This document shows positions 32,685-63,388 of a stretch of DNA of 64,000 nucleotides, piece by piece. The notes under the pieces were generated by a model that was not told where the DNA came from, made no database searches, and saw nothing but the letters and a program-made list of their open reading frames with translations. The translations under genes were made by a program, and so were the position numbers. Origin of the DNA: Catajapyx aquilonaris (taxonomy: Eukaryota); NCBI GenBank assembly GCA_000934665.2, contig KZ538860.1, forward strand, positions 1-64,000. Reading direction: 5' to 3'. How positions within the stretch are numbered: the first letter of the stretch is position 1; each line of letters begins with the position of its first letter.

Positions 32685-33747
32685 TCTGCGATGCTGTGAG
32701 GATGTAAAGAAAATAAACCATCTTTAACAGCCCAGAGCCTTTTAATTCACCCTCATGACTCTGCATGTGGGAAGCATGAAATAGTTGCTACCCTTTTTTG
32801 TTGCGAACTTCGCATGGGGATATCGAGAAACCTGCCGTGTCTCGGGCGCAAGTGCTATTTTTTAAAAGTGGATTTCTTAACCATTCCAATTGTCTGAAAT
32901 GCCAAATAAAGACGGTCTTTGGCAGTTGCAAGTTCATATGTTTACTTTCTGGATGGGCGGGCGGGTGGCGACGTAGAATTTTCGCTATGCATTTGGGTGG
33001 CCCTCAGTTGCTGGACTGTGGCAGCTCCAGAGTTCTGGAACAAAGAGGAATGGTTGGGTTGTTGTGAGGCATGCATTTATCCAGTTCACAGGGGTGGTTG
33101 TCAGCTATAGGTTATTAAAATGTGCGCTTTCAATTCCTGTGATGTGAGTAATATACCTGGCGATGTATGTAATGGGCAGTCCGAGGAACTGCGCCCCTGC
33201 GGCCAGGGCCCTTCCAGTGACGGAGAGGGCCTGGGAGGTGAGGAAGAGGCTCAGGTCGAGGAGGGCCAGGAAGGAGCCGAGCAAGGTGTGGAGACCCATC
33301 CTGTGGCCAGTCGTGGTGGGTCCACCCGAGGGAGGAGGTGCAAAGAGAGAGGCACCTGCAGATGGTTCGGAATATTCCTACTGCCGTTTCCGAGGCGACT
33401 GAGGAGGAGGAAGCAACAATGCCATTGCCAGAATGAAGGCAACAATGCCAAAAATAATGTCCACGTGGTGAGAGGCGGCCACTCGAACGCACCCGAACGA
33501 AGATGGCCTCCCCCTCCTGGCCTGCAGGGTGCTGCTGGTTATGAAACACTCGAAGGGTTCCTCTTCTCCTGGCCTTCTCCTCCTCTTCCTTCTGGGGGCT
33601 GGGGTTGTGATGCTCTAGGGGTGCTGCTGGGCCAAAGGGTGAGTGTCCACCAGGGAGATGTGTGTCCAGAGGGAAGGTGGGTGGGTGCGGTGTGGACGAT
33701 GCTAAACTGAATGGTCCTGATCCGCATTAATAGTTCATCCCAGGGCA

Positions 33748-34724
33748 ATGCGGTTGGTGGTGAAGGTCAAGGAGGAAGTGCTGGAGGAGGAAGACAGCCG
33801 GGAAAGGACTGGCACGGAGACGTGGAACCTGCCTCTGAAGGAAGAGGAGGCCCGCCCTTTGAGCTCTGGCGGTGATGATTGGACACCTGCTGCAGAGGTT
33901 GGTGAGCAGGTCAAGGAGGAAGAGGAGGAGATGGTGGCCATCAAGGAAGAGCCTCAAGATGAGGACGATCCATTGGAAGTCGACTCAGGGAGTGCTGCTA
34001 CTGATGAGGTACTCTCTGCCGCCCCATGTTATTACCTTCATTGACCTTAAAATGGGGTTGCCTTCACACACGTTTGCCATCACTGTATGGCACGTTATTC
34101 CCATGTACTAGGTGGGAGCATTGACACAGCGTCAGTTACTGACCATCTGACATGAGAATGTGGTGCTAGCATGAAACATATCGTGGCATTTGTATCCAAG
34201 CACCTTCAGTTACTTGATTCCTCTTTCAGGTGGCAGGAGAAAATGCTGATGGAAATAATGCAGGGGAGCAGCTGGGGAGAAGGAGCATGGCGGGGAGCGA
34301 CGAGAGGCCATTTGCTTGCCAGCATTGCTACAAGAGGTTCAGGTGGAAACACCATTGGAACCAGCACATGACACGCCACGTGGGGCACACACCCTACGGC
34401 TGCGAGGAGTGCCCGAAGAAATTCAGTCGAGCGTGTGACTTGGGGAAACACATGTTGCTTCACGCGAGGGAAATGCCACACATTTGCCTCTGGTGTGAGA
34501 AAAGGTTCCTCACCCTGTTTAACTTGAAGAGACACACCAAGCTCCACACTCTCGATTGCAAAAAGTCTCGTGGAAATGAGGGTCGTCTTGCAGCTGACCT
34601 GCAATTATTGCACACCAGTGGGGGACCTATTGCGGAGGGGAAATTTGATTGCCAGTTGTGCCAAAAGAGGATGATTTCCGCATCCGATTTGAGGACTCAC
34701 ATGCGGACACACACAGCAGGGTAG
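33748..34724 (+). CDS. Cluster gene ZNF-A: acidic exon 33748-34008 + C2H2 exon 34230-34724 (4 fingers)
   Basis: VKEE..ETWNLPLKEEE..EMVAIKEE..DDPL; phase-0 GT-AG intron; CxxC..HxxxH fingers. Confidence 0.8.
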
Positions 34725-35150
34725 GAGCCCATGCAAAGATCTTGCAAGCGCATCATGTGTGAGGTTGATGCCCCGGAACAAGGGCAGGGGAGAGGAACCC
34801 TGCTCATCCTGCAACTGGCCGGAAAGGGGTGGTACAATACACCAGCATCACCAGTATCACAGGGGCTCTTCTGGTTTTGCATGATGATTGTGTTAACTAG
34901 CTGGCTGCCTGATGTCCTTCAATGTTGCCAGAAATAAAAATCTGAAGCTCTTTTAATTATTATTTTCTTTTACGTTTGAAACATGTTTAATTTATGACTG
35001 ATGTAGTAGGGTGGACGTGCCACTCCCAAAAGGACCGAAGTGACGCTAGGAGTCTGCGCTGCGAGCCCCCCTTTGTGCACTGCATTGCATAATATAATGT
35101 ATTGTTGTGAGAAGCAGCCAACGAGAGATGGATTATATTATTATCAAAGA

Positions 35151-35280
35151 GGGTAGCAGCGACCCATACGGGAACTGCTACCCCCCCCTGCGACTCATGA
35201 ATAGCGGTTAAGGCCGTGAAACCAATGGGGACTGGAGAGCGGGGGTGGGAATGCGCCCGGACATTGATCCAAGATGGCGG
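35151..35280 (+). promoter_or_regulatory. Cluster promoter cassette (type copy). Other copies: ~33484-33508 (partial), 38816-38920, 42652-42779, 47172-47312, 49540-49645, 52005-52122, 53490-53611, 55996-56118, 58250-58360 (minus strand), 60425-60559
   Basis: Ordered motifs GTAGCAGCGA..(TCG)CTGCTAC, TAGCGCTTAAGGCC, GGTCGGAATGCRCCC, CAAGATGGCGG (YY1) upstream of each cluster gene. Confidence 0.85.
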
Positions 35281-35355
35281 AACGTCTTCCTCTTCTTCTT
35301 CTGCTCTCGAGAGAGTGGCTCGTCGTGGCCATTGCTCTGTAGGAATTAATTAATC

Positions 35356-35388
<33 letters not shown>

Positions 35389-35496: not shown

Positions 35497-38451
35497 ATGA
35501 TGTCTAGCTGGATGCTGCCCGTCAAGGAGGAGGAGGAGGAGGACATCACAACGGAGGAGACGTGGAGGCTGCAGCTGGAGGAGGAGGAGGAGGAGGAGGA
35601 GAAAAGCTTCCATGACGACTCGACACTTGCGGAGGACGTGCTTCGTGGGATCAAAGAGGAGGAGCCAGAGGAGGAGGAGGAGATGGTGGCCACTGTGTCG
35701 AGGGCAGATCAAGATGCGTGTCAAGGTGGGATCGCAAAGGAGGAGACATGGAGGTTGAAGGAGGAGGAGGAGGCCACTTCTTCCCTTGACCATGACCCGA
35801 CACTTGTGGAGGACACGGTTCGTCAGGTCAAAGAGGAGCCAGAGGAGGTGGAGGAGGAGATGGTGGCCACTGTGTCAAGCGGACGAGATGAAGATGCGGA
35901 TGATCCACTGGCAGTTGGAGGAGGAGGAGGAGGCGAGATAGGCCAGGTAGGTCAGCTGCTATACTGAAATGGGGGAATGCGTTTACTGTTGTATACCACA
36001 ATTTACTCCCACATTTTGACTCATAAAATGCACCACAGACAAGGGAGGTTTACAAGTGACATGATGGCTGTGATTCCACGAATTCAACTCATCATGGGTA
36101 GCGATGTAGCTCTCTCATGCATCTGCTTCAAGCCAAAAATATCCCACCTCTTAAAATCACAAGTGGATTTGCCCCGTCACATTTGTCTGAGGCACACCCA
36201 GTCTTTCGAAATGTCATTTACGTGCATTGTTAAAAATAAGCCACGTGTGCACACTTCCTGTCGCTCTTGCCTCCTCCCCCAGCAGGCAGTTGCATGCCAT
36301 GCCACTCTTATTCCTCTGCCCACACACACCCAGTGATCTTGGATGCCAAGAGCACCAGCACTCACTTTTAACTAATGAAAAAAGGAGATATTTTCTTCCT
36401 CGTGGTTCACCCCCTTGAGCCCCAGCTATACCTGCCATGCGCCATCGCCTAGTGTTCCACTTACGGGTACTCTGAAGATACGGGCAAGATATTTTACACA
36501 AAATAACAGCCATACTTATCCGATCAGGGAAAACACTAAGAATGTGTCTGGAACAATAATTTTCCTCGTCTAGAAGTCCCTAAATTAATTTCCAAAAATA
36601 TCGCTGTGAAACTCGCAAGTACTTCCGGCCAACTACTTGGCTGATTTAATTATGAAATACTGTATGTTAAAATACATGGAATAACAATGTATTGAGAATA
36701 GTGCCAGATGTGCAAGCCAAAAACTAGGCGCTCGCAGTATAGCTATACTCTGTGGCGATCCTTTTGGAAATTAATTTAGGGACTTCTAGACTGGTTCCAA
36801 ACACATACATGTATCATGTGGATAATTATTATAAAATTTATGCAAAATACTAGCATGTTTTAAAAAGTTACTATTGGAAAAAAAAAAAAAAATCAAACTG
36901 AAAAGGACATAGAGTCTTCTGATCATCATGCGAGGGTCCAATTATTAGAAAACAAGACTTTGGAAAAGGAGAACTGGAGGAGGGGTGACGGAAGGAGGGA
37001 GAGAGAGTTTTTGATTTGCGATGAGATGCAAACCTGCAGACATGTGATGAATGAGTGACCATTGGCCTCGCTTGTGGACATGCCATGGCAAACACCATTC
37101 ATCTGGACAGGAGGGGTTGCAATGATCTTGATTGTGCATGTGACTTGATAAAATATTAACTGTAATCCAGCAGTGATTCTCAGGCCATCACATTACATGA
37201 GGTGCAATATTCAGGCAAATTGGTGGGGACTGGCCGTTCCTTTTCAAGTTGATGGATAAAATTAATCTCTTTCAGGTGGAGGAAGGGGGTGCCAGGAAAG
37301 GGATGCAGGCAAGGGAGGGAGAGAAGAAACTCTCCCTCAAGGAAACATGTAGTGGCACGTCTCGTTTGAAGGAAGATGTGGGCATGCGCACAAGAAGGAA
37401 GAGGTTTGCTTGTGAAGTGTGCCAGAAAGAATTTTGTAGGGCATCTGATTTGAAAAGGCACACGCGGTATCACTCACTGTCAGAAGAGAAGCCGCTTCAT
37501 TGTGAAGTGTGCAAGATGAGGTTTTTATTTCCAGGTCGTTTGAAGCACCATATGCTCACTCACTCTGAGGAGAAGCCATTTGAATGTGAAGTGTGCAAGA
37601 AAAGGTTTTTACTCGAATGCGCTTTGAAAAGGCACATGAATGTCCACTCGGAAGAGAAGGCATTTGCCTGCAGTGTGTGCCAGAGAAGGTATGCATTGGC
37701 GTGCAGTTTGAAGCAGCACATGGTTATTCACTCTGAGGAGAAGCCATTTGATTGTGGAGTGTGCAAGAAGAGCTTCTCAAGTGCGTCTGGTTTGAAAACG
37801 CACATGGTTGTCCACACGGGGGAGAAACCCTTTCCTTGCAACTTGTGTCAGAAAAGGTTCGCGTTTATAGCTAATTTGAGGCTGCACATAGTTGCTCACG
37901 CGGGAGAGAAGCACGAATGTCAAGTGTGCAAGAAAATGTTTGCACACGCACACACTTTGAAGCTGCACATGGTTACCCACTCGGAAGAGAAGCCATTTGC
38001 TTGCACCTTGTGCCAGAAAAGGTTTCCCTTGGCATCTAAACTGAAGCGCCACATGGTTTCTCACTCCGAGGAGAAGCCGCACGACTGTCCAGTGTGCAAG
38101 AGAGGGTTTACATGTGCAGGTAATCTGAGGCAACACATGGTCACTCACACGGGTGAGAAGCAATTTGAATGTGAGGTGTGCCAGAAAAGGCTGGCATCGT
38201 CATCCACACTGAAGCTCCACATGATGGCTGTCCACACGGGAGAGCAGCCATTCGACTGCAAATTGTGCCAGAGAAGATTTTCACATCCAGCTACTTTGAG
38301 GAATCACATGACGACTCACACGGGAGCGAAGCCTTTTGCCTGTCCAGTGTGCGACAAAAGGTTTGGTCGGAATGCTGATTTGAAGAGACACGCGAGGAGG
38401 ACATCACATTACCCAGCAGCAGCGGAGAAGGTGGACCTTTCATTATTATAA
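35497..38451 (+). CDS. Cluster gene ZNF-B: acidic exon 35497-35946 (module internally duplicated) + C2H2 exon 37276-38451 (12 fingers)
   Basis: CAG|GTAGGT donor, TTTCAG|GTG acceptor, phase 0; H(T/S)(G/E)EKP linkers. Confidence 0.88.
36440..36800. mobile_element. Second, internally deleted copy of the foldback element, in the ZNF-B intron
   Basis: 29-bp inverted repeat TCTAGAAGTCCCTAAATTAATTTCCAAAA 36569-97 / 36762-90; CCGGCCAACT and TAATTATGAAAT blocks shared with 20335-21011. Confidence 0.7.
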
Positions 38452-39206
38452 TAAGTGGAGGTAGGTGGGGTACGTATAGGAGCAGGTGTTTGCGGTGTAG
38501 TCAGGCCTACTTGACCAAGAGGGAATGAAACATCTTTCTTGTCAGTCCAGTTGTTTTGTACAAGAACATTACAAGATTTTGTACATGTACAAATGTAGAA
38601 TTAGTACATGCAATAGGTGTCATTGAATTTGATGAACATGAGTTGGCTCATTGGCCTAATTATTGCATATTAATTTATTTAGCTTGTCCTCGGCAGTTAT
38701 TTTTAGTTGTTCAGGGTGTTGCTTCTAAAGCTAGATTAAATATAATGGGAAATAGACCAGGCAGTTTTTTTTTTTTTTTCTTCCTCCGCAGCTTCTCCGT
38801 TCTCCGAGTATGGAATAGCAGCGAGTGGTGGTAGCTGCGACTCCCTCCCAGCCGCGGAACCTATGTGCAGCGCAGGTCGGAATGCGCCCAACCTCATCCA
38901 TATGGTCCACCAAGATGGCCTCCTCCTCATTGGAAGAGGGTTGAAGAGGAGAGGAGACCTAGGTGGGTTGGTTGGGTGGGCACCCATCCATCAGGAGGAG
39001 GAGGACCTCCCTGTCACTTGGGAAGGGTTGGGCAGGCAGCAACTGGTGGGCCAGCCACACGCTTCAGGAGGAGGAGATAGGGGGGCACTAGAGGGGAAGG
39101 AAGGAAGGAAGGAAGGAAGGGAATCCACATGTAGTACTAACCCCACCAGACGACACTCGTGGGTGGAATTACCTGACCTCTACTTCCATCTATACAGCTG
39201 AGGACC

Positions 39207-40638
39207 ATGTCATTGATGCTGCCCGTCAAGAAGGAGGAAGAGGCGGACGTCAAGGAAGATGAGGCAGCAGAGGAGACGTGGAGGCTGCAGCTGAAGGAGG
39301 AGGAGGCCCCTTCCTGCTTCCATGATGAAGCAGCACTTGCGGAGGACGCAGCTGGTGAGATCAGCAGAGAGGAGCCAACCGAGGAGGAGGAGGAGATGGT
39401 GGCCACTGTGTCAAGCGGAGATGAAGATGCGGATGATCCACTGGCAGTTATTGGAGGAGGAGGGATTGCTGGTCAGGTAGGTCAGCACTACCCATATGGG
39501 GGACATATACCTTTACTGGACTGATAATTTATATCACATTTTGCATTTTGATCCCAAATTTTGACATTTTAAGTGGACCAGAGACAATGAGGCATGCTGG
39601 CTTTGCTTTCACATATGAAAATTGAAATCACAAAGTGTAGTGGCGGTGATACAGCTATAATCCATATCTCTCATTCAGGCCAAAAATGTGCCACCTCTTA
39701 AAATCCCCAACTGATGTACGTGCCCCATCGCATTTCTCTGAGGCACACTCAGCAGCTTTTATTTCAAAATGTAGCTTCGTGTGTTGACCGACACCAAGTT
39801 TAACATAATGTACGGGATCATCTGTTATTATTGTATGATGCGGGAACAACTTTTTTACACAGATGCCCACATGACATAAATGGGGTGCGTCGGCTCAGCA
39901 TCTTTAAACTAGTGAAATATTATAATAATAATATAATAATGTAATAATAATAATAATTCTCCGGTAGTGCCTGACCCTATATAGGGTATGCGGCACGGAC
40001 CTTTATTGTCACTTATGCATAGACCATATTTTTGAAACGCCCGGGCCCACGGGCAGGATGACAGGAGGGGATGTGCAAGGTGCAGTGGCCATTTTCAGTG
40101 AACTCCCCCGGGTGGTTTAGTCTGTTGGAGATACCACCCGAGACGAAGCCAGAGGTGACCCTGAACTCTGCACGAGATGAAGGGGGTGTCCCCGGGCTGG
40201 GATCGAACCCGGGACCTTAACATCCGTGGGCGCATACGTTACCGCAGCACCACTCCGCCTCCCATATTATTATTATCATCATCATATATTCACTGTCCAT
40301 CAGGAATCTGAATTATGCATAAACGTATATTCTCATAACCCTGTTCATGGATCGGGGACATCCTGTGTTGTAAGAAGATTCCTGCACTTGCTTACAACTG
40401 CGCGTATGCAATGATTTGCACAATTTCTACCCAAATATCTCATTTGGCTATTTTTAAAATGCAGCACTACAGTACAGGCATTATAAAGTTACAAAAAAAA
40501 TGCAGAAAAACCTCAAACTGAAAAATAAGTTGACGTTTTCTTCTGGTCATCATTAAAATGTGAATGCGAGAGTCCAATTATTAGACTCTGGCAAAGGAAA
40601 ACTTGAGGGGTGATGGAAGCGGAAGGGAATGAATAGGA

Positions 40639-40670: not shown

Positions 40671-42020
40671 GAAGAAGAAGAAGTTTTGATTTGCGATTAG
40701 GTGCAATATTCATGCGAATTGGTAGGGATGAGCACTGGGTGTTCTTCGGCTGTTGATGATAAAATGAATCTCTTTCAGGTGGAGGATGGGGATGGAGGAG
40801 CAAGGAAAGGGATACAGACAAGCCAAGGAGAAAAGAAACCCTGTCGCAAGAAAACACTTAGTGGGACGTCTCATTTGAAGGAAGATGTAGATGTACAGAC
40901 AAGGAGGGAGTGGTTTGCTTGCGAAGTGTGCCAGCAAAGGTTTGCCAGGGCAACTGGTCTGAAGAAGCACATGAGGACTCACTCGGAAGAGAAGCAACTT
41001 CACTGTGAGGTGTGCAAGAAAAGATTTTCATTTCCATCTTATTTGAAGCAACATATGGTTTCTCACTCGGAAGAAAAGCCATTCGATTGTAAAGTGTGCG
41101 GGAAAGGGTTTTCTAGATCAACTGGTCTGAAGAAGCACATGCTCACTCACTTGGAAAAGAAGGACTTTGCATGCAGTGTGTGCCAGAGAAGGTTTGCAGA
41201 TTTGCATTATTTGAAGCGCCATATGGTTAATCACACAGGAGAGAAGCCATTTGAGTGTGAACTGTGCAAGAAAAACTTTGCCTTTGCTGATTCTTTGAAA
41301 AAACACGTGGTGTCTCACACAGGGAAGAAGGCGTTTGCTTGTCATGTGTGTCAGAAAAAGTTTGCATTTGCAACTACATTGAAGACGCACATGCTTTGTC
41401 ACACAGCCGCAAAGGAATTTGCTTGCAACTTGTGCCAGAAAAGGTTTTTATTTGCAGGTAATTTGAAGCAACATATGCTTACTCACTCAGACGACAAGCC
41501 ATTTGATTGTGAAGTGTGCAAGAAAGGGTTTGCATGTCCGTATGCTTTGAAAAAGCACATGGACGTTCACCTAAAAGAGAAGCCATTTTCCTGCAATTTG
41601 TGTCACAGGAAGTATACAGTTGCGTCTAAATTGAAGCGCCACATGGTCACTCACTCCGAGGAGAAGCCATTTCATTGTGAGCTGTGCAAGGAAAGGTTTC
41701 CACGTGCATATGATTTGAAAAGGCACATGAATGTCCACTCGGAAGAGAAGGCATTTGCCTGCAGTGTGTGCCAGAGGAGGTTTGCATTGGCGTATAAATT
41801 GAAGCAGCACATGGCTGCTCACACTACAGGAGGTGTAGTAGAGCAGAAGCCACATGGTTGCGAAGTGTGCAAGAAAGGGTTTGCCCGGAAGCTTGATTTG
41901 CAGAAACACTTGAGAACTCACGCAGGGGAGAAGAAATATGTGTGCAACTTGTGTCAGAAGAGGTACACGGTGCTGTCTTCTTTGAGGAGGCACATTTTGA
42001 CCCACACGGGCGGGCCGTAA
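39207..42020 (+). CDS. Cluster gene ZNF-C: acidic exon 39207-39476 + C2H2 exon 40779-42020 (13 fingers)
   Basis: MSLMLPVKKEE..EETWRLQLKEEE..EMVAT..DADDPLAV; phase-0 intron. Confidence 0.9.
39920..40263 (-). mobile_element. tRNA-derived SINE in the ZNF-C intron, with a (TTA)n tail
   Basis: Minus-strand head GGGAGGCGGAGTGGTGCTGCGGTAAC (A box) ... GGTTCGATCCC (B box, 40209-40199); ~230-bp body; TTA-repeat tail; ATATTAT at both flanks. Confidence 0.8.
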
Positions 42021-49374: not shown

Positions 49375-50042
49375 AGCTGTACATTTCATGAACAGTTAAA
49401 TAAAATTGTGGTTGAAAGTATTTTTTTTTGGGTGGCTTAATAATGGCCGGGCCATTTGGAGTCTGAGGGTCAGACGGACGCCCTGAACCATTGCATTTTT
49501 CCGCCTTTAAAAATGTCATTTTCTCATATATGTTGCAGAGTAGCAGCGACTGAGACGCGGGTCACTCCAAGGTCACTCGCTGCTACCCATGCCCAAGGAG
49601 CGAGGGTCGGAATGCGCCCGGGTATATTGATCCAACAAGATGGCCTCTTGCTCTTCTTCTTCTCTGCTCAGGGAATAGGAGTGTTGAAGAGATTGGGAAA
49701 AGAAAGAATCTCTCTCCCTGAGCTCCCTGGGGTCATTGGGAAGAAGGGCCAGCTGGTGGTGGTGGTCCACACCCATCAGGAGGAGGAGGAGGACTGGTAT
49801 ACTGTTGCAGGCAACAATAAAACATTCCGCAGGAGTTACTTATACCGCTCTTGCTTATACACAAATTATTAATCCTTGCAACAATTTGTTTTGCTTTTTA
49901 ATGACATGCGAGGGTGTATCCAGAGGCGACTATTTCTTGGCATTCTTTTTTGCATGATGTGCTGCAGGATGACGAGGATACCACACGCGTAAACACTGGC
50001 ACCTCGGCAAGTTACCTGACCGTTAGTTCCATTTACAGGAGC

Positions 50043-51505
50043 ATGTCATTGATGCTGACCATCAAGAAGGAGGAGGAGGAAGGAATTGATGGTGAGATCG
50101 TAAAGGAGGAGGAGATATGGAGTTTGCCCTTGAAGGCCCATGATGACTCGACACTTGTAGAGGATGCGATTGGTGAGATCAAAGAAGAACCAGCAGAGGA
50201 GGAGGAGATGGTGGCAACTGCGGCAGAAGCAGGTGATGCGGATGATCCACTGGCAGTTAGAGGAGGAGGAGGGATTGGTCAGGTAGGTCAGCACTACCCA
50301 TATTGGAACTTTAGTTTGCTGTACTGTTGCATGTCACAATTAACTCTCATTTTGACTAATGAAATAATGTACCACAGACAAGGCAAGTTTGCAAGTGGCA
50401 TGCCGGGTGTGACTTCACACATTCAAATTGAAATTATTAATTGCAGTTGTGCTGCAAAGAAAACAGTGCAAGAGAGAAATACTTGGCTGATCTGAGCAAA
50501 TGCCATCCAGCAAAAAAAGGCTGTATCTATGTGATTCCATAACCTGACCTCTAAAGTTAGCAGTAACTAGCAGTGGCACAAAAATTCGACCCTCGAGACT
50601 GTAAATCTTGGTAATTTAATGGGACATCCTCTCATTTGCAGGAAGATGTGGACATGCACACAAGAAGCAGGAAGCGGCTTGCTTGCAAATTGTGGCAGAA
50701 AGGATTCGGAAGAGCAACTGATTTGAAAAAGCATACTACATACTCACCAGAAAAGCCGTTTCATTGTGAAGTGTGCAAGAAAAGGTTTGCATTTGCATCT
50801 GCTTTGAACACACACGTTGTCACTCACACAGGAGCAAAACCTTTCGCTTGCAACTACTGCCAGAAAAGGTTTGCATTTGCATCTTCTTTGAAGACACACA
50901 TGGTTACTCACACAGGCGCAAAACCATACACCTGCAACTTGTGTCTGAAGAGTTTCGCATGTGCATCTAAACTGAAAGACCATACCGTTACTCACTCAGA
51001 AGAGAAAGCATTTGCGTGCAACTTGTGTCACAAGCGGTTTGCAATGGCATCGCAATTGCAGCGCCATATGGTTACTCACTCAGAAGAGAAGGTATTTGCG
51101 TGCAACTTGTGTCAGAAGAGCTTTGCATGTCCACATACTTTCAAAAGACACTTGAAGAATCACACAGCGGAGAAGTCATTTGCATGCAACTTGTGCCAAA
51201 AAAGGTTTGCATTTGCGTCTAATTTGAAGCAACACATGGTTACGCACTCGGAGGAGAAGCCATTTGCTTGCAACTTGTGCCAGAGACGGTTTGCGATGGC
51301 CGTTCAATTGAAGCGCCACATGGTCACTCACACGGAAGACAAGCCATTTGCTTGTCAAGTCTGCAAGAAACGCTTTGCATTTGCATATGCTTTGAAAAAT
51401 CACATGGTAACTCACACGGGAGACAAGTCATTCGCTTGCGATGTGTGCCAGAAAAGGTTTGCATGGCCGTCTAAATTGAAGCAGCACATGGTTATTCACA
51501 CCTGA
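50043..51505 (+). CDS. Cluster gene ZNF-F: acidic exon 50043-50282 + C2H2 exon 50642-51505 (9 intact fingers, 1 degenerate; stop in the linker)
   Basis: In-frame TTTGCAG|GAA acceptor; ends CAC ACC TGA GAG followed by finger remnants. Confidence 0.78.
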
Positions 51506-52232
51506 GAGATGCACATATGTTGGCAGATTTTGGCAGGAAATATTAACTCGCCTATCTTTGGTTATGCAAAAATGGTGACTCACACACGAGGGAAGGGAGG
51601 CAAAGTGTGCAAGGAAAGGTTTTCAGAGGAGTTTGACACGCGGAAAGCTGGAAACAAGCGAGATGGGATTTGCTGAGAAGATAGGTACACACTACTGCTT
51701 TTATCTCTTGGGTCCTTAGGAGGTCATGCAGGTGCTCTACTGATACGGTTAACCTGCCATCTGAGTAGGGGAAAAAAAATACACGTTGGAAATAATTTTA
51801 GTTGAAGGTGTGCAAGAGGACTTTTTGTTGATGGCTCATAGGGCCCATCCAGACAAGTTGTTAATTGCCGTTATGTCAATTTTTTGGTCATAAATAAAAT
51901 TATTGTGTAAATTATTTTGCTAGCCTTTAGCATGATTTATTTCCCTGTGTGTTGCAGTTATTTTTAATTCAAGAGAGAGAGAGAGAGAGAGACCATATCT
52001 GTGAGTAGCAGCGAGATGTTGGTAACTGCTACCTATGAGACAGATAGCGCTTAAGGCCTTGAAACATGTCCAGAGAGTGGCAGTGGTCGGAATGCACCCA
52101 TGACGTCATTCCAACATGGCGGACGTCTCCTTCCTGTGAAAAAGAGGAAAAGGAGACTCTCATCGGAGGAGGAGAGGCTTATTCTCCCTTCTCGTCGCTG
52201 CCATTTCATTAGTTCCATCTGCATAGGACCAT

Positions 52233-53400
52233 ATGTCGTTGATGCTGCCCATCAAGAAGGAGGTGGTGGAGGAGGAGGAAGGAGCAGGCGAAGATGATGG
52301 GATTGCAGCCGAGGAGATGATGTGCAGCTTCCCCTTGAAGGAGGAGGCCTGGAGCATGCCCTTGGAGGAAGAGGAGACCCCTTCAAGCTTCTTCCACGGT
52401 GAGGACTCTGTGGAGGACACCGTCGGTGAGATTGAGCCGGAGGAGGAGGAGATGGTGGCTGCCACGGAGGAGGTTGACCAGGATGCGGATGATCCACTGG
52501 CAGATGGGGAGGTAGGTCATCAGCAGCTGGTGGGGCATTCGTTTGCTGGACTCTTACATTCTACTCGCAAATTATGGCTAATCAAGTGCACCACAGACAA
52601 TGGGAGGTGCTGGCCTGTGATTTCACAAATTCAAATCATCATGTGCAGCTATATCTCTCCCATGCATCTGCTTCAAGCCATATAAAATCTGCCACTTCTT
52701 AAAAACCCCAAACTCATTTGCCCCATCGCGTTTTTCTGAGGCACCAGATCTCAAGAAGGATCATCCGGTAGTGTAGCATATCAGAACTGCAAAAACAAGA
52801 GATGTAAGGGCGGGTTCAGACTTTTCAGAAAGTTTGGTGTTTTCCCCTCAATGAGGTTGGCTATCATAATGTTCATGTGATGCGTATTTCTTTCAGGTCA
52901 AGCCTGGGGTTGGAGGAGCACGGAAAGGGAGAAGAGCAGGAGAGAAGAGACTTTGTCGCAAGAAAGCGTTTAGTGATGGGACATCTCCCTGGAAGGAAGA
53001 TGCGGCGGAGGACCCGACGAGAAGGAAGTGGTTTGATTGCAAAGTGTGTCAAAAAAGGTTTAGTAAGTCGTCTAATTTGAAAGCGCACATGGTTACTCAC
53101 ATCTTCGGAGAGAATCCATTTGATTGCAACACGTGTCAGAAGAGGTTCGCATTGGCGTCTCTCTTGGAAAATCACATGAAGACTCATGCGGGAGAGAGGA
53201 AGGAATTCGCGTGCACACTGTGCCAGAGAGAGTACAGCAGGGCCAGGGATCTGAAGAAGCACATGCTGACTCACACAGGAGAGAACCCTTTCGGTTGCAA
53301 GTGGTGCCAGAAGAGGTTCGCACTGGCGTCCTCCCTGGAGAACCACACCAGGACTCACGCAGGGGATAATCGTGTCACCACCACAGCAAGTCAGAAATAA
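52233..53400 (+). CDS. Cluster gene ZNF-G: acidic exon 52233-52511 + C2H2 exon 52897-53400 (4 fingers)
   Basis: Phase-0 splice gives a continuous frame into ORF 53044-53400. Confidence 0.85.
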
Positions 53401-53715
53401 ATTCCAGGATTGATTCTGGCAAGCGATATTTCGTCATTGCAAAAGTTGGTCCTAATATTATTTTGCAATAGTTTTATATGGAAATGGGAGTAGCAGCGAT
53501 GTAAAGTCGCTGCTATTCCCCCCTCAGCGGGTAGCGCTTAATGGCTTGGCACCCTGAGGAGCGACGGTCGGAATGCGCCCCACTTCGGAGGTTATTGATC
53601 CAAGATGGCGGATCGTTCTTTTTCCCTTCCTTCCTTCCTTCCCCTAGGACTGGTCGTGGCTCTCGGAGGAGGAGGAGGAGGCTGACCTCTCCCTGGGCGT
53701 CGCTTCGTCCTCACC

Positions 53716-55765
53716 ATGGCTTTGATGCTGCCCATCGTCAAGGGGGAAGAAGAAGAGGTGGAGGAGCAGGGAGATGGGATCATCGCAACCACGGAGGAGG
53801 AGACTGCCCCTTCAAGCCGCTTATTCCACTACCATGGATCGACAGAGCAGGGCCCTCAGATCAAAGAGGAGGAGGAGATGGTGTCAACCGCATCAGATGA
53901 ACACACATGTTTTGAAGGTGGGATCGTCAAGGAGGAGATTTGGAGTTTGCCCTTGAAGGAGCCCACTTCCAGCTTCCGTCGTGATGGCTTATTGACGCTT
54001 GAGGTCAAAGAGGAGCCGGCAGAGGAGGAGGAGATGGTGGCCACGGCGTCAAGCGGAGACGAAGATGCGGATGATCCACTGGCAGTTGGAGGCTGTCAGG
54101 TAGGTCGGCACTACTGGGACCTACGTTGACTGGATTGTTCAATGTTTTACACCGATATTCACTATTATTAAGTTTGGCAGTTGGGTTATTGGCACCAGCA
54201 TGACATTGAGGCATTCACAGGGAAAGGGGCGTGACTCACATCACCGAGAAATGTGCTGCGCAAAGAAAGAAAAAAGTAGCCTGCATTTAAATGTTGCACT
54301 CATAAATAAAACTGCTTTTACTTTTCAGTGACGAATCCAACAATAAGAAATGTTTTGTGTGATAAAAATAATATGCTTCACGGTGTTCTCAAAAAAATAA
54401 ATATTTTCTTTGCCTATAGCCCCCATAAAAAATTCAATTAGTGACTTACGCCCTATCCCATGTGAATGCCTCAATTACCATCACTGGTGCGCCTGAATGC
54501 ACCCAATGCAATTGTTAGGTTGACATAAGTTAGCTTCGTGCCCTAAATAGGGACCTGCCCTCCTTTAAATCCTTGCAGTTAAAATCCTTCACCTGGACAG
54601 GAGGGGGTTGCAATGATCTTGTTTCTGCGTGTGACTTGATAAAATAATGACTGTGTGGTTAATCTTGTGGTGTCCAGCTGCAGTGATTCTCAGACCATCA
54701 CATTACACGAAGCACACAACAAATTGGTGGGGATGAGCACGGGCTGTTCTTTGATTGTTGATGGACTGGATTGATCTCTTTCAGGTGGAGGCTGGGGATG
54801 ACGGGAAAGGGATGCAGACAAGCCAAGGAGAGAAGTCTTTTCATTGTGAAATGTGCAAGAAAAGGCTTCCAAGTGCATCTGCTCTGAAGGCGCACATGGT
54901 TATTCACACGGGAGAGAAGCCCTTTGCTTGCAACCTGTGCCAGAAAAGGTTTGGATTTGCATGTGCTTTGAAGAGACACATACTTACCCACGCAGGAGTT
55001 AAGCCATTCCGTTGTGAAATGTGCCAGAAAAGGTTTGGATGCGATTCCGCTTTAAAGACGCACATGATTACTCACACGGGAGTGAAACCATTTGCTTGCG
55101 ACTATTGCCAGAAAGGATTTGCATTTGCGTCAACTTTGAGGGCACACATGGTCACTCACACAGAAGAGAAGCCGTTTGTTTGCGACGTCTGCCAGAAAAG
55201 GTTTGCATTGGAATCTTACCTGAAGGCGCACATGGTTACTCACACGGGAGAGAAGCCCTTTGCCTGCAGCGTGTGCCAGAGAAGGTTCGCATTGGCATCT
55301 TACCTGACGCGTCACATGGTCGTTCACTCTGAAGAGAAGCCACTTGATTGTGAAGTGTGCCAGGAAACCTTTTCGTCTGCGTACACTTTGAAAGAACACA
55401 TGGACACCCACGCATTGAAACCATTCGCTTGCCCCGTCTGTCAGAAAAGGTTTAGTAGCGCGTCTAATATGAAGCAGCACATGGCCACCCACTCGGAATG
55501 GAAGGAATTTGCTTGCAACCTGTGCCAGAAGAGGTACGCATTGGCATCTGACCTGAAGCGCCACATGAAGACTCACTCGGAGAAGCCATTTGATTGCCCA
55601 GTGTGCAAGAGAAGCTTCGCGTTTGAACATGCCTTGAAGAAGCACATGGAGACCCACACAGGGGAGAAGGAGTTTGCCTGCAGCTTGTGCCAGAAGAGGT
55701 ACACCCTGCTGTCGTCCTTGAGGAGGCACACAGCCACTCACACAGGAAATGCTAGCAATAGCTGA
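53716..55765 (+). CDS. Cluster gene ZNF-H: acidic exon 53716-54099 + C2H2 exon 54785-55765 (11 fingers)
   Basis: MALMLPIVK..EIWSLPLKE..DADDPLAV; phase-0 intron. Confidence 0.9.
54205..54475. mobile_element. MITE in the ZNF-H intron
   Basis: ATTGAGGCATTCACA..GGGCGT..TCAC / GTGA..ACGCCC..TGTGAATGCCTCAAT, ~33-bp imperfect inverted repeats around an AT-rich core. Confidence 0.75.
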
Positions 55766-56222
55766 ATGGAAACTTGCTCTTGATGACCTGCCGCCTAGTC
55801 ACCAACCGGTACTTTATTCAGTGGATATTATTATTGGGAGTAGTTGTTCCCTGTTCCGGACAGGCCGTTGTATTTGGGAGTCATGTATTGTGCGTATACA
55901 TGTGTAAATGCAGTATGTGGTTATGTACAAGACGTTTGTGAATTTTATGAATGAATAAATGAAATTATTATTATTTGAACGAAAGAGCGTCTTAAATAGC
56001 CGCTACTCATCAGGATCTGGATAGCGCATAAGCACATCCCTTTTCAAAGCGTTGATCGGAATGCACCCGACTCCAAAAAAACAAAAAAAAAAATGAAGAA
56101 TGTTTTCCAAGATGGCGGACGATCCTTTCCGTTAGCGCGTCACTCTTTCTCTTCATTTCGACCCGTTTCTTCGCCCACCTTCGCGTCTAGAGGGAGAATC
56201 GCCTTCCATACACTTGCACGGT

Positions 56223-57529
56223 ATGTCACTGATTGAAAGGATCAAGGAGGAGGAAGACTATGGCGATGAAGAAGAAGTCGCGATGGAAGAGCTGTGGAAG
56301 GAGCCGTTGATAGAAGAAGCCCCTTCTTGCTCTGATCATGAAGCCACGACACCCATCAAAGGGGAACCAGCTGAGGAGGAGGAGGAGGAGGAGGAGATGG
56401 AATACAATGTTACGGCCAAGGTGACTGAAGATGACCCATTGGCAGTTGGTTCTGCAGGCAACGGAGAGGTACGTTAGCGTCAGGAATTGCGAAACAACTT
56501 CCCTGGACTCAGTCTTCCGTAAAGACTAGCTTGTGTTTGAAAAATTAGATGGAAAAAAAAGGGATTCTAATGGTGCAATAAATGTACTGAAATTGTAAAT
56601 CCAGATGGTCAGCCAGGAAAAGTCTGTAGAAAGCCAATCGTGTGTGACTTTCTCTTCAGAGCAAGACTGGTGGTGCACCAGCAGGAAGATCTTCCATGTC
56701 GTTACGCCGTGGTAGCATCAATAGAAAACCACAGAGGAAGAGAAGCAAAAAGTTGTCAGTGAAGCAGCAAATGGCGAGAAACAAAGAGACACATCCTGTG
56801 AAGCCTGGCTGTACCTGCAAAAACAAGTGCGCAGACAAAATAACGGAGGAGAGGAGAGAGGCCATCAACAGTGAGTTCTGGGCCTTGGACCACTGCGGAC
56901 GGCAGGTGTTCATCCACGGTTCCATCACCAAGATTCCCAAGAAGCAAAGCACCACGGTTGGATTCAGCTGTCGCTCCTACAGTTTCTTTTACCATATGAG
57001 AGACCAGTACAACAATTCCTTTCGAGTGTGCAAGGCTTTTTATCTCACAACACTTGGCTTCGCCCAGAATAATGACACTGTTGTGCGGAACGTGATGCGT
57101 GTGTGCGACGGTCCGTTGTTTTTCCCTCAGCAGGATGGGAGGGGAAGGGCTCCTTCCCCATACAAGATCGATACCACCTCCATTGAAGAGCACATCAAGT
57201 CTTACGTTCCTGGTCTATCCCAGAGGAGACGGGACAACGGGACAAATTCATCAGGTGACGTGACATTTTCTGCAATGGTGAAAGACTACAATTCCAAGCA
57301 CAAGGAACGGCCCGTCTCCTACAGCATATACTGCAGGGTAGCCAAGACCATGAACATTTCAATTACATCTGGCGGAAAAATTAGTGCTCCTAATAAACGA
57401 GTACCAAATTGCCAATATTTACAGCCTTCTCTTAATCCTGTGCAATTATCACTAAGGCTCCCGTTGGAATGCACCCAACATGGACCACAAACGGCTTCTC
57501 CTCTGCATGAGTTGCCAGGTGCCTTTTGA
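56223..57529 (+). CDS. Cluster gene I: acidic exon 56223-56468 spliced to a non-C2H2, Cys-rich, probably transposase-derived exon 56660-57529
   Basis: MSLIERIKEE..ELWKEPL..EDDPLAV; phase-0 splice in frame; CTCKNKC..EERREAINSEFWAL..RVCKAFYLTTLG..DGRG..IEEHIKSY. Confidence 0.78.
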
Positions 57530-58073
57530 AATGAGATGCCCAGGCAAACCGTTTCTGACAAAAAGTGCAAATGAATGGCTGATACGACCTATGAATCTCC
57601 GTGTGTTTTTTTCAATTTAGATTCCAGTGCAAATGTTTTCTGGCAAAATTCACATGTCAGTGGCTTTTCTTTTGTATGAGTCAAAACGTGCGATTTCATA
57701 GTATCTGGCCTTGCAAACCTTTTGTGACACGCACTGCAAGCAAATGGCTTCTTCTCCTCTGCATGCCTGGCCATGTGCATTTTCAAAGAGTATCTCTGCG
57801 CAAACCTTTTCTGGCACAATTGACAAGAAAATGCTGCCTTCACTCCCGTGTGGGTCACCCAAGTGTTTTTTTCAAAGTAGACGCCAAAGCAAACTCTCTC
57901 TGACACACGCTACATGCTAATGGTTTTTCTCCCGTGTGAGTCATCAAATGCGTCTTCAAACCAAAGGGCCGACTAAACTTCTTATTGCACTGATGACAAG
58001 TCTTCTCTCTTTCGACTGTCCTGATATTTGGCTCCTTCCTCCTTTCAATGATTCCATCCGCTTCTTGGTCAAC
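57485..58073 (-). pseudogene. Frameshifted C2H2 array (ZNF-J pseudogene) that keeps the promoter cassette but lacks the acidic exon
   Basis: Fingers split over several frames (CHQC..HLMTH, CQLC..HMARH, CSAC..HVLTH, QKRFAWASHFKRHLATH) with shifts at A-runs near 57870 and 57610. Confidence 0.8.
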
Positions 58074-58496
58074 CTGCAAGATTAATTTATCAGTACAGTG
58101 ATACAATTTTTAGGACTGAAAAGCCTGTTTCGTTCCATTTGCTCTCCATTACACAATGTAGTGTCAATAATAATAATAATAAGATCAATAATAAGAGAGA
58201 GAGAGAGAGATGAAAGTACACTTCAAGAGGTGGTTACAAGCAATATCGGGCGGCCATCTTGGATTGCATTTTTTTTTGCGGGTGCGTTCCGATGGCCACC
58301 TTTCGCTGGGGGGGAATGGCGGACGGGCTTATGCGCTATTAATGGGGGAACAGCAGCGATTGCACGACGATCCCAATAATACCGATCGAATCGATCGTAT
58401 CAGAAGAAGAAGAAGCCCGTGTCCGTCCGTCTCTCTCTCTCTCTCTCTCTCCTTCCTTCTGGTGGTCCATTGTCCACCAGAGCAGCTACAGGCAGG

Positions 58497-59997: not shown

Positions 59998-60666
59998 AAT
60001 GTCCAGATTCAAAAAACTGACTCGCAAGTATTTCATTATTTACAATATGCAGTTGAATCTCCTTAATCTCAACTCTACGTAAATAGTAACAAAATGCCAA
60101 TAAGGTCAAGTCCCACACGAAGGAATATGGTGGATGGCTGTCAATTATAATTATGGAAGTTTCATTTTGTCCTGTGATGCACATGGCCCCACGTGACCAC
60201 AACCTGTTCAAGTATAACGACAATTAATTGTTTGCAGCAGGAAACTTATTCCAGGAATGTCCAGTCAATGTCCTGAAGGTCAGTGTTAAAGCGCAGAGTA
60301 TTCTAATGCTCGTGGTTACTTCCAACGCTGAATTTGTCGGTATGAGTTGTTTGCACTAATTAATAAAAAGAGAAGCACAAGTTAATTGAGCCAATTGAGC
60401 TGGAGGTGAGCTTCCCCCTGACAAGTAGCAGTTACCAAGAAGAAGCCGTTACTGCTCCTGCCAATAGCGCTTAAGGCCCTCCCTCCCCCTCCTTTCAACC
60501 GCCTTGTAGTGTGGGCGATACGAACGCACCCCACACACGTCACCAAGCCAAGATGGCCGACGTGTGGAACATCATCATTATTTTATAGTTAGCTGTGCAC
60601 GGCAAGTCTCTCGGGATTAATCGAGGCTGTGGTTCATACTGGCAGTGGGTGTTTCCCCTAAGGACA

Positions 60667-63388
60667 ATGTCCTCTTCTTCTGAACTGGTGGTCAAGGAGG
60701 AGGTGGAGGGGGAAGAACAGGCCGTCACTTCGGAGGCATGGAAGGTGGCTGTCAAGCAGGAGGCCACCGCGTTCTACTCTGATGATTGCCAAGACGCGTC
60801 GTCGTCGACAGCTGCAGGGGACGGCGGCGGGATTAAAGAGGAGCCGGACGAGGAGGAGGAGGAAGAGATGGTGGCTGCAGTGGCAGCAGGAGGGGATGCC
60901 GAAGAAGCGGTCGACCCTTTATCCACGGTTGGACGGACTGGCCAGGTATGAAGGATGATGAGTTGAATGGCCTGATCAACATGCACTGCTCCCGTCAACA
61001 ACAAACATCCCCAATTCTCAAGTTCCCACGGAGATGCCCTCAGGCAACAAGAACTAGCATGCCCGCAGGAGCTACTCCATTCGCATTGAGTACCGGCCAC
61101 ACAATCCAATGCCTTTCTTTTTTGCCCATATCCCATGGCCAGAAATCTCACGTATTCATTGACCCAGGCGTGATTGCTCAGCTCACATGAGTTTGTGTCA
61201 TAATATATTATGCTGCAGTTTGTCCAGGAAAAGGCTACATGGGATTTCAGGGAATTTTGAAGTACTGCAGCGTTGGCAGATGCATATTGAACCCAACATA
61301 GGACACATTCAAATCAAAATATTCCACATAGCATCCATTCATTTTTTTTTAGAGCAAACATAGGGGACAAGGTGGGGGTGGAGCAGGCAGAAATTTAGGG
61401 GAAAAAAACCATGTGGCCATGCATTATTTTCCTGAGCTGACTCCATCTGCACTCATCATTTTACACATCCCATAGGAATCAATTCTGTGCACATATTAAC
61501 TCGACCAATTGAGGCATGTGATTGGCCACCTCAGATGAGGCAATGAAAATTTCGCCAATTATTACTACATAATGGATCATAGGGCCAGTTTTCAGCATGG
61601 AGGCTATTTAATTCTTGCATATCCACTACAACACTAGTACACTACAGGGAAATGCCAGGTTGCTTGCTGGTACAGTAGTAGCAATCTAAATATTTATGAC
61701 CTCCTACCCTTACAGTTCCTTCAGATCTTTTCTCGTGATGCATATGTGCAAGCAGAAAAAAAATTATCTCTCACCCACCATGTAATTTTAGACTTTTTCT
61801 CATCGAAGACAAGTCTGGCATAACTGCCCGTCCGTCCATCTGCGGACAGGTTATCAGGGCCTAAACCGCTGGAGATAGCGACAAATTGTTGTCGGATTCA
61901 GATTTGGCAGACCCTGAATAGGTATCAGGGTCAACTTCTGGTTTTCCGGGTACACTCGATCCCCCAAGATCAACTCTATACTGTATAGGTGGGGTGTCCT
62001 GAGGATCCTTGGCAACATGGAATAGATTGCTCTCAGCCTAATTTCAGGAGTATTATCAGTACTACAACACTGCCAAATGAGAAAAAGTTCACTGGAATCA
62101 TGCTCGCGGCTATGGCAAGATGGATTTTACGATCCTGAATACAAGACTAACGTACATGCTTGACTTTACAATGTTGCAAGATATTTCTTGGTTGTTATGA
62201 AAGAATACTGAATCATGCAGCCATGGTAAACCACCTACTCCCCTCATCTCCAGGTTCGACATGTTAATGGGGACAGTTAATTCAGAGCTACCTCGTCATG
62301 CTCTAAACAGTTGTGATAATCTTGCGCTTTCCCACACTTTCTGTCCTGCTATCCCTCGTTCCCCAACTGCAAAATATTGCTCGATACCACCCATTTAAAC
62401 CATTTCCATCTTACAGGTGGCCCAAGAAAAACATGTTGCGAGCATGGAGGAAGACATTCAGACGGAAAGTCAAATGCCGAGAAGTGAGGGAGAAAATCAG
62501 GGATACAGGAAGACTTGCTCGGGAGAGGAGCCACTCGCTTGTCCATTGTGCCAAGAGAAGTTTAGTCTAGGACATGAATTTAGAAGGCACATGTTAAGTC
62601 ACCCCAAGGAGAAGCCTTTCATTTGCCAGATATGCCAAGAGGGTTTCTGTCTGGAAGCCCAGCTGTTGGGCCACTTGTCAAGTCACCCTCCTAACGAGAC
62701 GCCTTTTGTTTGCCAGATATGCCAAAAGGGTTTCTATGGAGAAGCCCAGCTCTCAGCCCACACGAGAGCTCATTCAATAGAAAAGCAATATGTTTGTCAA
62801 GTGTGCCAGAAGAAATTCCCTTGGCCATCTGACTTGAAAAAACACTTGGTAACGCACACGGAAGAGAAGCCTTTTGATTGCAAAGTGTGTCAAAAAAAGT
62901 TTAGTAGGGCATCTGATCTGAAGAAACACCTAGTGATTCACACAGAAGATAAGCCTTTTGATTGCCAAGTGTGCCAAAAATCTTTTTATAGGGCGTCTGA
63001 TTTGAAGAAGCACTTAGTGTCTCACACAGGAGAGACCCCATATTTCTGTCACGTATGCCAGAAAAATTTCAGGAGTTCATCTAGTTTGGCCAACCACCTA
63101 AAAATCCACACGGGGGAGAAGCCGTACTGTTGTGACACCTGCCAGAAAAGATTTAGCCAGTCCAATGATTTGAAAGTACACAAGAGGATTCACACTGGGG
63201 AAAAACCATTCGCATGCACAGTGTGCCCGATGAAATTCCGCCAGGCACGTCATTTGAAAGTCCACATGTGGACTCACACCGGAGAGAGACCAATTGCATG
63301 CACGCTATGCCAGAAGGCATTTCGCCAGGAATGTCATTTGAGAGACCACATGAAGAGGGCTCACACTGAAGAGAAGACACGTGCCTGA
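60667..63388 (+). CDS. Cluster gene ZNF-K: acidic exon 60667-60945 + C2H2 exon 62417-63388 (10 fingers)
   Basis: LVVKEE..EAWKVAVKQE..IKEEP..EMVA..VDPL; phase-0 intron. Confidence 0.9.

Follow-up and report, generated by a model that had tools for sequence, protein, structure and literature searches.

Lineage-specific expansions of zinc-finger (ZNF) genes occur across animals, and few of them, to our knowledge, are known to share an effector module, the described ones being KRAB, SCAN, ZAD and FiNZ. KRAB acts through TRIM28; ZAD, which carries two pairs of cysteines, was as far as we know the sole such module known in arthropods. ZAD is a zinc-binding, folded domain that mediates homodimerisation (PMC7913770). 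FiNZ is a glutamate-rich N-terminal sequence of 28 amino acids (aa), confined to cyprinid fish, which occupies its own exon upstream of the exon encoding the ZNF array, in clustered genes (Wells et al. 2023, PMC10547256). It marks roughly 700 zebrafish ZNFs, and its knock-down de-represses transposons, the mechanism of repression being left open; the morpholino given in the methods pairs with a start region that codes for M-A-F-I-K-E-E, a psi-K-x-E (PMC10547256). According to the same authors, dozens of ZNF families across animals remain uncharacterised (PMC10547256). Here we study a 64,000-nucleotide stretch of contig KZ538860.1 (hereafter, the window), whose plus strand holds, at 33.5-63.4 kb, nine genes of one layout, as found from a list of six-frame open reading frames (ORFs) and a motif scan. 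Each gene joins an acidic coding exon (hereafter, exon 1) to a payload exon. The main character of exon 1, as read from its sequence, is a clustering of psi-K-x-E motifs, which a first-pass annotation of the same DNA overlooked.

That annotation had described each gene as an acidic first exon ending in a phase-0 donor, followed by a single payload exon, and all nine plus-strand genes do fit this layout. The term 'first exon', however, must be narrowed to 'first coding exon'. In all nine genes (g1 to g9) exon 1 encodes 80-150 aa: it starts with an ATG and leads to D(A)DDPLAV, a short glycine run and an in-frame phase-0 GT donor. The donor contexts are CAG|GTAGGT, CAG|GTGGGT, GAG|GTAGGT, GAG|GTAC.. 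or CAG|GTATGA. Exon 2 opens at a phase-0 acceptor, preceded by a pyrimidine tract in the eight genes other than g5, and the acceptor position is in each case the first coordinate of exon 2 given below.

The boundaries of exon 1 are set by the ATG, the donor and the alignment of the nine copies, and those of exon 2 by the acceptor and the C2H2 finger pattern; in g5, g6 and g8 both exons are also delimited by spliced contigs. In g1, a divergent acidic exon 1 of 87 aa (33748..34008, donor GAG|GTACTC) precedes an exon 2 with 4 C2H2 fingers (34230..34724, acceptor tttcag|GTG, with Pfam zf-C2H2 matches). The exon 1 of g2 encodes 150 aa (35497..35946), with a duplicated inner module, and its exon 2 encodes 12 fingers (37276..38451). 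The corresponding figures are 90 aa (39207..39476) and 13 fingers (40779..42020) for g3, and 98 aa (47474..47767) and 14 fingers (48061..49374) for g4. In g5, an exon 1 of 80 aa (50043..50282) is followed by one degenerate finger and then 9 fingers (50642..51505); in g6, 93 aa (52233..52511) are followed by 4 fingers (52897..53400). The exon 1 of g7, again with the inner module duplicated, encodes 128 aa (53716..54099) and precedes 11 fingers (54785..55765). The exception is g8, where an exon 1 of 82 aa (56223..56468) is joined to a non-finger exon 2 encoding a basic, cysteine-containing product of 289 aa (56660..57529). Finally, g9 combines a divergent exon 1 of 93 aa (60667..60945) with 10 fingers (62417..63388, supported also by the ORF list). 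We thereby recover every finger count reported by the first-pass annotation (4, 12, 13, 14, 9, 4, 11 and 10), together with its one non-finger payload. Our finger expression gave 9 for g9; the tenth, which begins with I (IACTLC..H-x4-H), was read from the ORF list.

Two features depart from the common pattern. At the position where its paralogues usually have their acceptor g5 contains stop codons, and it uses instead an acceptor further in, tcctctcatttgcag|GAA, at 50642, behind which the first finger is degenerate. In g2 and g7 the part of exon 1 that runs from W to EEEEMVAT is duplicated internally. The duplication junctions of these two genes are alike (..ACQGGIAKEETW.. and ..TCFEGGIVKEEIW..), which suggests either one old duplication or repeated loss among the other copies.

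The splice between the two exons was checked with the contigs of X1, the sole public run containing part of the stretch (0.30 share of sampled words), placed on positions 43600-63599. The kind of this run is unrecorded, and no run listed as RNA contains the stretch. Contigs join 50282|50642 in g5 (joint 50279->50639, cut +3), 52511|52897 in g6 (joint 52509->52895, cut +2) and 56468|56660 in g8 (joint 56466->56658, cut +2), in each case with GT..AG borders. The splice proposed in the first-pass annotation is thus seen in three of the nine genes; for g4, g7 and g9 no joint appears in the X1 contigs over the same positions, where the depth is 0.4-1.4, and g1-g3 lie outside the placed stretch. The contigs also skip three GT..AG introns (58699-58786, 58950-59182 and 59600-59846) of a MADF gene at 58464-59847 (+). 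Because the intron-less joined forms have canonical borders, the X1 contigs look RNA-derived. Three further joints are non-canonical and short-sided (50214->55247, 50791->51223 and 53290->55157), and we take them to be mis-joins among repeated finger sequences. Of the 69 placed contigs, 32 are only 90-95% alike to the window, which is compatible with further paralogues elsewhere but is not proof of them. In one contig the poly-E run of g5 exon 1 is longer by an in-frame GAG, at window position 50195, which may represent either an allele or a paralogue.

Alignment of the nine exon-1 proteins recovers the ordered motifs that had been noted before. The columns that are invariant across all nine sequences are M1, two E, W, EEEM and DPL, and the consensus reads MSLMLPIKKEEEE..EE.W.LPLKEE..EIKEEP.EEEEEMVAT..DEDADDPLAV.GGG..GQ. 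At the nucleotide level, the mean pairwise identity of exon 1 is 0.63, compared with 0.41-0.42 for the 400 bases upstream, 0.42-0.48 for the intron ends, 0.38 downstream of the stop codon, and 0.36-0.41 for shuffled sequences. A comparison of exon 1 with the intron had been set beforehand as a check on the motifs, and the exon is the more conserved of the two (0.63 versus 0.42-0.48). The ratio of non-synonymous to synonymous divergence (dN/dS, by the method of Nei and Gojobori) has a median of 0.43 across 30 measurable pairs, in all of which it lies below 1, with synonymous divergence (dS) of 0.4-2.8; 6 more pairs are saturated. We conclude that exon 1 is under constraint.

The similarity of the nine exons might instead reflect concerted evolution, or the recent duplication of non-functional or decaying copies, in which case it would imply no function at the protein level. 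Two observations agree with such an account: dS is lower in exon 1 than in the finger exon of the same pairs (0.40 versus 0.95 for g2-g3, and 0.61 versus 1.58 for g2-g4), and one adjoining member of the family is decayed. Nevertheless, we find this account hardly credible, given that all nine reading frames are open with start, donor and acceptor intact, that dN/dS is below 1 in 30 of 30 measurable pairs, that introns and upstream flanks are near the shuffle level of identity, and that three of the genes are represented by spliced contigs. In g2-g5 pairs, exon 1 shows roughly half the synonymous divergence of the finger exon.

Exon 1 is strongly acidic. Its net charge ranges from -18 to -41, with 24-53 D+E and only 3-12 K+R, and by this number of D+E in 80-150 aa it is glutamate-rich in the sense in which FiNZ is. 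An AlphaFold2 model built from the nine-sequence alignment reaches a mean predicted local distance difference test (pLDDT) of 62.8 and a predicted template modelling score (pTM) of 0.16, and its sole secondary structure is one helical turn of three residues. Exon 1 is therefore predicted to be a disordered chain with conserved short motifs, rather than a folded domain.

Searches for relatives of this chain came back empty. Pfam hmmscan at E<=1 returns no family for seven of the nine exon-1 proteins, and only sub-threshold matches for the remaining two (DUF4746, E=0.94, and CRAL_TRIO_N, E=0.056). In particular, none of the nine matches the profiles of KRAB (PF01352), ZAD (PF07776, zf-AD), SCAN or BTB at E<=1. 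CxxC occurs in none of the nine exon-1 sequences, and for that reason exon 1 is not a ZAD; the earlier view that the exon is neither KRAB nor ZAD is in agreement with both results. A homologue search with the nine-sequence alignment against longer proteins gave no match at E<=0.001 among 8000 scored candidates, a list that low-complexity words may crowd, and an exhaustive HMMER search of 1.84 billion protein representatives gave none at E<=0.001, although relatives scoring below about 40 bits would escape it. PDB sequences contain no match at E<=1. The best score in the ESM Atlas is 0.85, to unnamed clusters; a cluster of KRAB fragments there, at a score of 0.78, was rejected as it shares 55 of 256 features, which is the chance level. 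A search of contigs of JGI metagenomes with the five closest C-terminal parts gave 596 pattern matches, none of which tblastn confirmed. When the exon-1 profile was compared with the 120 best database ZNFs, found with the g3 finger exon and at most 48% identical to it, the best hmmsearch match had E=0.25, so that the module is present in none of them. Exon 1 therefore matches no described domain in Pfam, the PDB, the protein representatives, the ESM Atlas or the JGI contigs, and the epithet 'lineage-specific' given to it in the first-pass annotation is consistent with the lack of a detectable relative in any library searched. Our survey of the literature on such an arthropod module returned only KRAB, ZAD, FiNZ and unrelated work, which is not proof that the module is unpublished. 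Scans of the whole window with Rfam and for tRNAs found nothing.

These results also bear on the idea that exon 1, like ZAD, SCAN or BTB, serves for dimerisation or clustering. Such an idea draws on an analogy of position, in that exon 1 is N-terminal, belongs to clustered ZNF genes and is found in an arthropod-like genome. We consider it very improbable: no fold is predicted (pTM 0.16), CxxC pairs and Pfam matches to zf-AD, SCAN or BTB are absent from the nine exons, and a net charge of -18 to -41 disfavours self-association.

What distinguishes exon 1 most clearly is the context of its lysines. Pooling the nine exons, 27 of 42 lysines fall in [VILMF]K.[ED], that is, in the psi-K-x-E form of the SUMO consensus, as compared with a mean of 2.8 (standard deviation 1.6, maximum 8) in 2000 shuffles that preserve composition. 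For comparison, four unrelated proteins of the window contain 2 such sites among 60 lysines. Each exon has 2-4 sites, and in every one of the nine an acidic run follows at least one site. The sites recur at the same places: [IV]K[KE]E near residue 7, LKEE right after the invariant W, and [IV]KEEP right before EEEEMVAT. Exon 1 thus combines what is expected of a SUMO acceptor at the level of sequence, namely the consensus, downstream acidic residues and predicted disorder.

Published work provides a context for these sites. The SUMO consensus of most substrates is [IVL]KxE, and an acid-dependent variant of it is known (the negatively charged amino-acid-dependent SUMOylation motif, NDSM; PMC3395311). 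Among 166 repression domains with SUMOylation motifs in a large tethering screen in human cells, at least 149 required the motifs for repression, and a 10-aa tile of MGA containing IKEE was sufficient to repress (bioRxiv 10.1101/2022.08.26.505496).

Our preferred reading, which we hold with somewhat less than even confidence, is that exon 1 serves the whole family as an effector handle and acts through SUMO, as a SUMO-dependent repressor; both the conjugation and the repression are inferred. The nine genes would form a tandem cluster of paralogues that encode transcription factors. According to this proposal, exon 1 and the promoter cassette would be the shared parts of the genes, and phase-0 splicing would join them to interchangeable DNA-binding payloads. 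Ubc9 would attach SUMO at the psi-K-x-E lysines of exon 1; co-repressors that bind SUMO would thereby be brought to the loci that the fingers select, and transcription would be repressed. The invariant W, EEEM and DPL could serve as further contact points. A multi-site SUMO acceptor of this kind would turn any DNA-binding payload spliced to it into a SUMO-dependent repressor. As for repression of transposons or chromatin by the family, which the first-pass annotation had suggested, it would follow by analogy with known systems, and our results neither support nor contradict a targeting of transposons.

Several points weigh against this proposal. Since the nine exons are homologous, the 27 sites do not represent separate events, and their significance is overstated by the shuffle test; moreover, the psi-K-x-E motif is short, and about one residue in three is E. 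A search of the nine exons with regular expressions found no SUMO-interacting motif (SIMa, SIMb, SIMr or [VI]x[VI][VI]) and no CtBP, HP1 or Groucho motif, and of the full proline-flanked synergy-control motif there is a single instance, in g8. In view of its lower dS, part of the conservation of exon 1 could be due to gene conversion confined to this exon or to constraint at the nucleotide level, such as GAR-rich RNA or purine-rich splicing enhancers. Splicing is confirmed in only three of the nine genes, by a run that is not recorded as RNA. In the human screen, deletion of SUMO motifs from activation domains rarely altered activation (bioRxiv 10.1101/2022.08.26.505496), and by analogy the sites of exon 1 may be bystanders, as SUMO sites can be.

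The acidic runs around W, L and M weigh in the same direction, and they lead to the main rival explanation: that exon 1 is an acidic activation domain, in which W, L, M and P-L, kept exposed by acidic residues, contact co-activators, while the psi-K-x-E lysines at most damp activation, as synergy-control sites. With its net charge of -18 to -41 and its invariant W, M and PL inside acidic runs, exon 1 has the composition of such a domain, and its predicted disorder would suit one. Indeed, aromatic residues or leucine among acidic residues define the activators in the human screen (bioRxiv 10.1101/2022.08.26.505496). On the other hand, the glutamate-rich ZNF modules that have been characterised, KRAB and FiNZ, are tied to repression (PMC10547256), and the IKEE tile represses by itself in human cells (bioRxiv 10.1101/2022.08.26.505496). 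In addition, the lysines of exon 1 are kept almost only in the context of the SUMO consensus, which an activation domain does not require. On balance, we regard an activation domain as somewhat unlikely, though as an alternative to be taken seriously.

We now turn to the payloads, beginning with the one that lacks fingers. The g8 payload contains no C2H2 finger. Pfam assigns it to no family at E<=0.01, a match to DUF7768 (E=0.11) falling short of the cut-off, and the PDB offers no match. The payload includes a CxCxxxC stretch and scores 0.93 in the ESM Atlas against unnamed eukaryote clusters, in which Arthropoda is the commonest phylum; the nearest Atlas cluster with a family, at a score of 0.82, carries DUF7869 on 11% of its members. 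The payload may be a domesticated mobile-element protein, a suggestion that we offer as a lead only. A single-sequence AlphaFold model of it (pLDDT 36.7) was judged unusable. The splicing of the acidic exon to a payload without fingers in g8 speaks for exon 1 as a portable unit.

The same juxtaposition suits another explanation, by which exon 1 is an intramolecular regulator or a solubility tail: a poly-anionic arm that would bend back onto the basic payload and, in competition with non-specific DNA, sharpen or gate the binding of DNA. Exon 1 is joined to two unrelated types of payload, its strong negative charge lies beside basic payloads, and the leaders of exon 2 are rich in K and R (ARKG, RKK, TRRK, and RKPQRKRSKK in g8); predicted disorder, too, would be compatible with such an arm. 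A role in charge alone, however, would not keep W, EEEM, DPL, MSLMLP and psi-K-x-E across paralogues whose dS exceeds 1, and we judge this explanation quite improbable.

The finger payloads, for their part, have diversified where they are expected to read DNA. Measured over 73 canonical fingers, helix positions -1, +2, +3 and +6 show the highest entropy (3.30, 2.66, 3.41 and 3.16 bits); position 4, between the zinc-binding cysteines, is the sole close runner (3.09 bits), and the zinc ligands and the F and L of the core are nearly fixed. Over 28 pairwise comparisons, the median non-synonymous divergence at -1, +2, +3 and +6 is 2.2 times that of the framework. At these specificity positions it roughly matches synonymous divergence (0.47-1.08), dS being near or beyond saturation. 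The DNA-reading residues have thus been free to diversify, but positive selection is not demonstrable. The dN/dS analysis of the helix positions that the first-pass annotation had called for therefore yields faster change than in the framework, at a level of synonymous divergence that precludes any demonstration of positive selection. In contrast to the young arrays of KRAB or FiNZ, the paralogues are old (dS from 0.4 to saturated), and no recent arms race is visible. Diversified fingers fit the pairing of one shared effector with varied DNA readers, as in our preferred reading of exon 1 as a SUMO-dependent handle. Two peculiarities of the arrays may be recorded here: many linkers of g2-g7 read SEEKPF and not TGEKPF, and F or L is frequent at helix position -1 (30 of 73 fingers), an uncommon choice for residues that contact bases.

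Upstream of the coding exons, short boxes recur in the order A-B-C, some 120-300 bases before the ATG. Box A is ATAGCGCTTAAGGC, box B is TCGGAATGCGCCC, and box C is CAAGATGGCGG, with the core AAGATGGC. Except in g1, where the boxes were read from the sequence, positions come from the box scan, and all are on the plus strand. All three boxes are present in g2 (35201..35280), g4 (47234..47312), g6 (52044..52122, with one mismatch in C), g7 (53531..53611, with three mismatches in A) and g8 (56021..56118, with three mismatches in A and one in B). In g9 (60464..60559) we find A and C, the latter with one mismatch, and a variant of B by eye only. The remaining genes have B or a variant of it together with the core of C: B and the core in g3 (38877..38920) and g5 (49607..49644), and a B variant and the core, the latter at 33500, in g1 (33483..33508). 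Box B has 11 matches at no more than two mismatches, and box C has 11 at no more than one, as compared with 1.2 expected in each case. The promoter cassette reported by the first-pass annotation is accordingly found before the nine genes, but box C is found at unrelated genes as well (31332-, 29811- and 17423-). Since it precedes such genes, box C is a general promoter element of this genome and not specific to the family. Boxes B and C also stand upstream of an F-box gene at 43711. The F-box/leucine-rich repeat (LRR) gene of this region (window 42744-44862, +) matches Pfam F-box-like and LRR_At5g56370, and it has no acidic exon.

Two genes on the minus strand resemble the family in part. The first, a ZNF gene at 45600..46634 (-), encodes in one ORF an acidic N-terminal region rich in psi-K-x-E (IKQEP.., IKIEDEEEMLVD..EDPLGAV) and 5-6 fingers, as identified by Pfam and hhalign. 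These sequences are reminiscent of the family motifs; the match to exon 1 by hhalign has E=0.0017 and a probability of 15%, and covers only EEEM..DPL. Four of its five lysines in this region are in psi-K-x-E, a number that shuffles reach in 1 of 5000 trials. On sequence grounds, this gene is a probable distant relative of the family. Its linkers are of the TGERPYKC type, and a candidate short upstream coding exon is seen by eye (donor CAG|GTATGG, acceptor cccag|G). The second is a decayed ZNF gene at 57589..58339 (-), found by Pfam and the box scan, whose fingers (57589-58109) lie in three frames. It has no acidic exon, but boxes A, B and C lie ahead of it, at 58251-58339 on the minus strand. 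The decayed gene has an acceptor of the family type (cttgcag|GTTGAC) and is placed tail to tail with g8.

The gene content of the window is that of a compact animal locus, with a SIX homeobox gene, a TRAF-like gene, a cytosolic carboxypeptidase, LRP5/6 and RPS10. Between 6515 and 32459 we observe single long ORFs for LRP5/6 (1563 codons, 24238-28929), RPS10 (31842-32459), the carboxypeptidase (21179-22519) and the TRAF-like protein (15482-16618, -). The GC content of this part is 58-65%, versus 44-52% in the ZNF cluster. The genome is intron-poor and heterogeneous in composition. Runs of N, which mark assembly gaps, occur at 3643-3810 and 9228-9236, the first being flanked by a GA/CT microsatellite.

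The LRP5/6 of the window is at most 55% identical to any database protein. In a FastTree tree of 34 rows it forms a long branch inside the arthropods (support 100), within a pancrustacean group of 8 (support 99), and is weakly sister to three insects (support 84). This tree represents one gene and a quick method, with rows chosen from the match list, and the composition of the sequence deviates from that of the alignment. The arthropod origin implied by the first-pass annotation fits it. Judging from this protein sequence, the window probably comes from a pancrustacean without close sequenced relatives, and a lack of such relatives would explain the empty protein searches for exon 1.

How, then, does this cluster compare with the systems already described? 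Its closest published analogue is FiNZ, which the first-pass annotation did not consider. As far as the published account of FiNZ can be compared (PMC10547256), the two have in common a glutamate-rich N-terminal exon without similarity to known domains, a single exon for the ZNF array, and an arrangement in tandem clusters. They also share a psi-K-x-E at the extreme N-terminus, the FiNZ sequence being represented here by its first seven residues only. They differ in length and organisation, since FiNZ has 28 aa whereas exon 1 has 80-150 aa with at least five ordered motifs; in distribution, since FiNZ is restricted to cyprinids whereas the LRP5/6 of the window groups with Pancrustacea; and in age, since the FiNZ genes are young and number about 700, whereas the nine copies in the window are old (dS 0.4 to saturated).

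The KRAB-ZNFs of tetrapods similarly have a separate effector exon, tandem clusters and an acidic composition (PMC10547256), but exon 1 has no Pfam match to KRAB, and the KRAB cluster of the ESM Atlas lies at the chance level. With the ZAD-ZNFs the cluster shares an N-terminal module, clustered C2H2 genes that are expanded in a lineage-specific manner, and an arthropod-like genome; unlike ZAD, exon 1 has no CxxC and no zf-AD match, and it is predicted to be disordered.

The SUMO-dependent repression domains of human proteins, such as the IKEE tile of MGA and K550 of SP3, resemble exon 1 in having short psi-K-x-E motifs within disorder, down to the exact forms IKEE and VKEE (bioRxiv 10.1101/2022.08.26.505496). 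Those described are, however, single sites in unrelated proteins, whereas exon 1 has 2-4 ordered, predicted sites in an exon dedicated to a family. A further likeness is found in teleost ZNFs (syngnathid P0161, P0137, P0145 and P0232), in which repeats of QIKEEEPEF or PIKKEED..W precede the fingers and 35-46% of the N-terminal lysines are in psi-K-x-E. Their N-terminal part is, however, 325-384 aa long with 20-24% D+E, and the best match of the exon-1 profile among the 120 matches has E=0.25; we read the resemblance of these sequences as probable convergence, and not as homology.

Taken together, these comparisons raise the question of whether ordered psi-K-x-E exons in acidic disorder are a recurrent silencing handle for ZNF families, free of TRIM28 and evolved independently here, in cyprinid FiNZ and in other teleost ZNFs. 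We consider so broad a generalisation unlikely, but if it were true, SUMO, and not a family-specific co-repressor, would be the common currency of ZNF-guided repression outside tetrapods, and exon 1 would offer a compact, portable SUMO-dependent repressor for the engineering of arthropod genomes. Independently of that question, the cluster adds a well-delimited module in an arthropod-like genome. Its kind is already known from KRAB and FiNZ; what is new is a module that is unrelated to them, longer, ordered in its motifs, and joined also to a payload without fingers.

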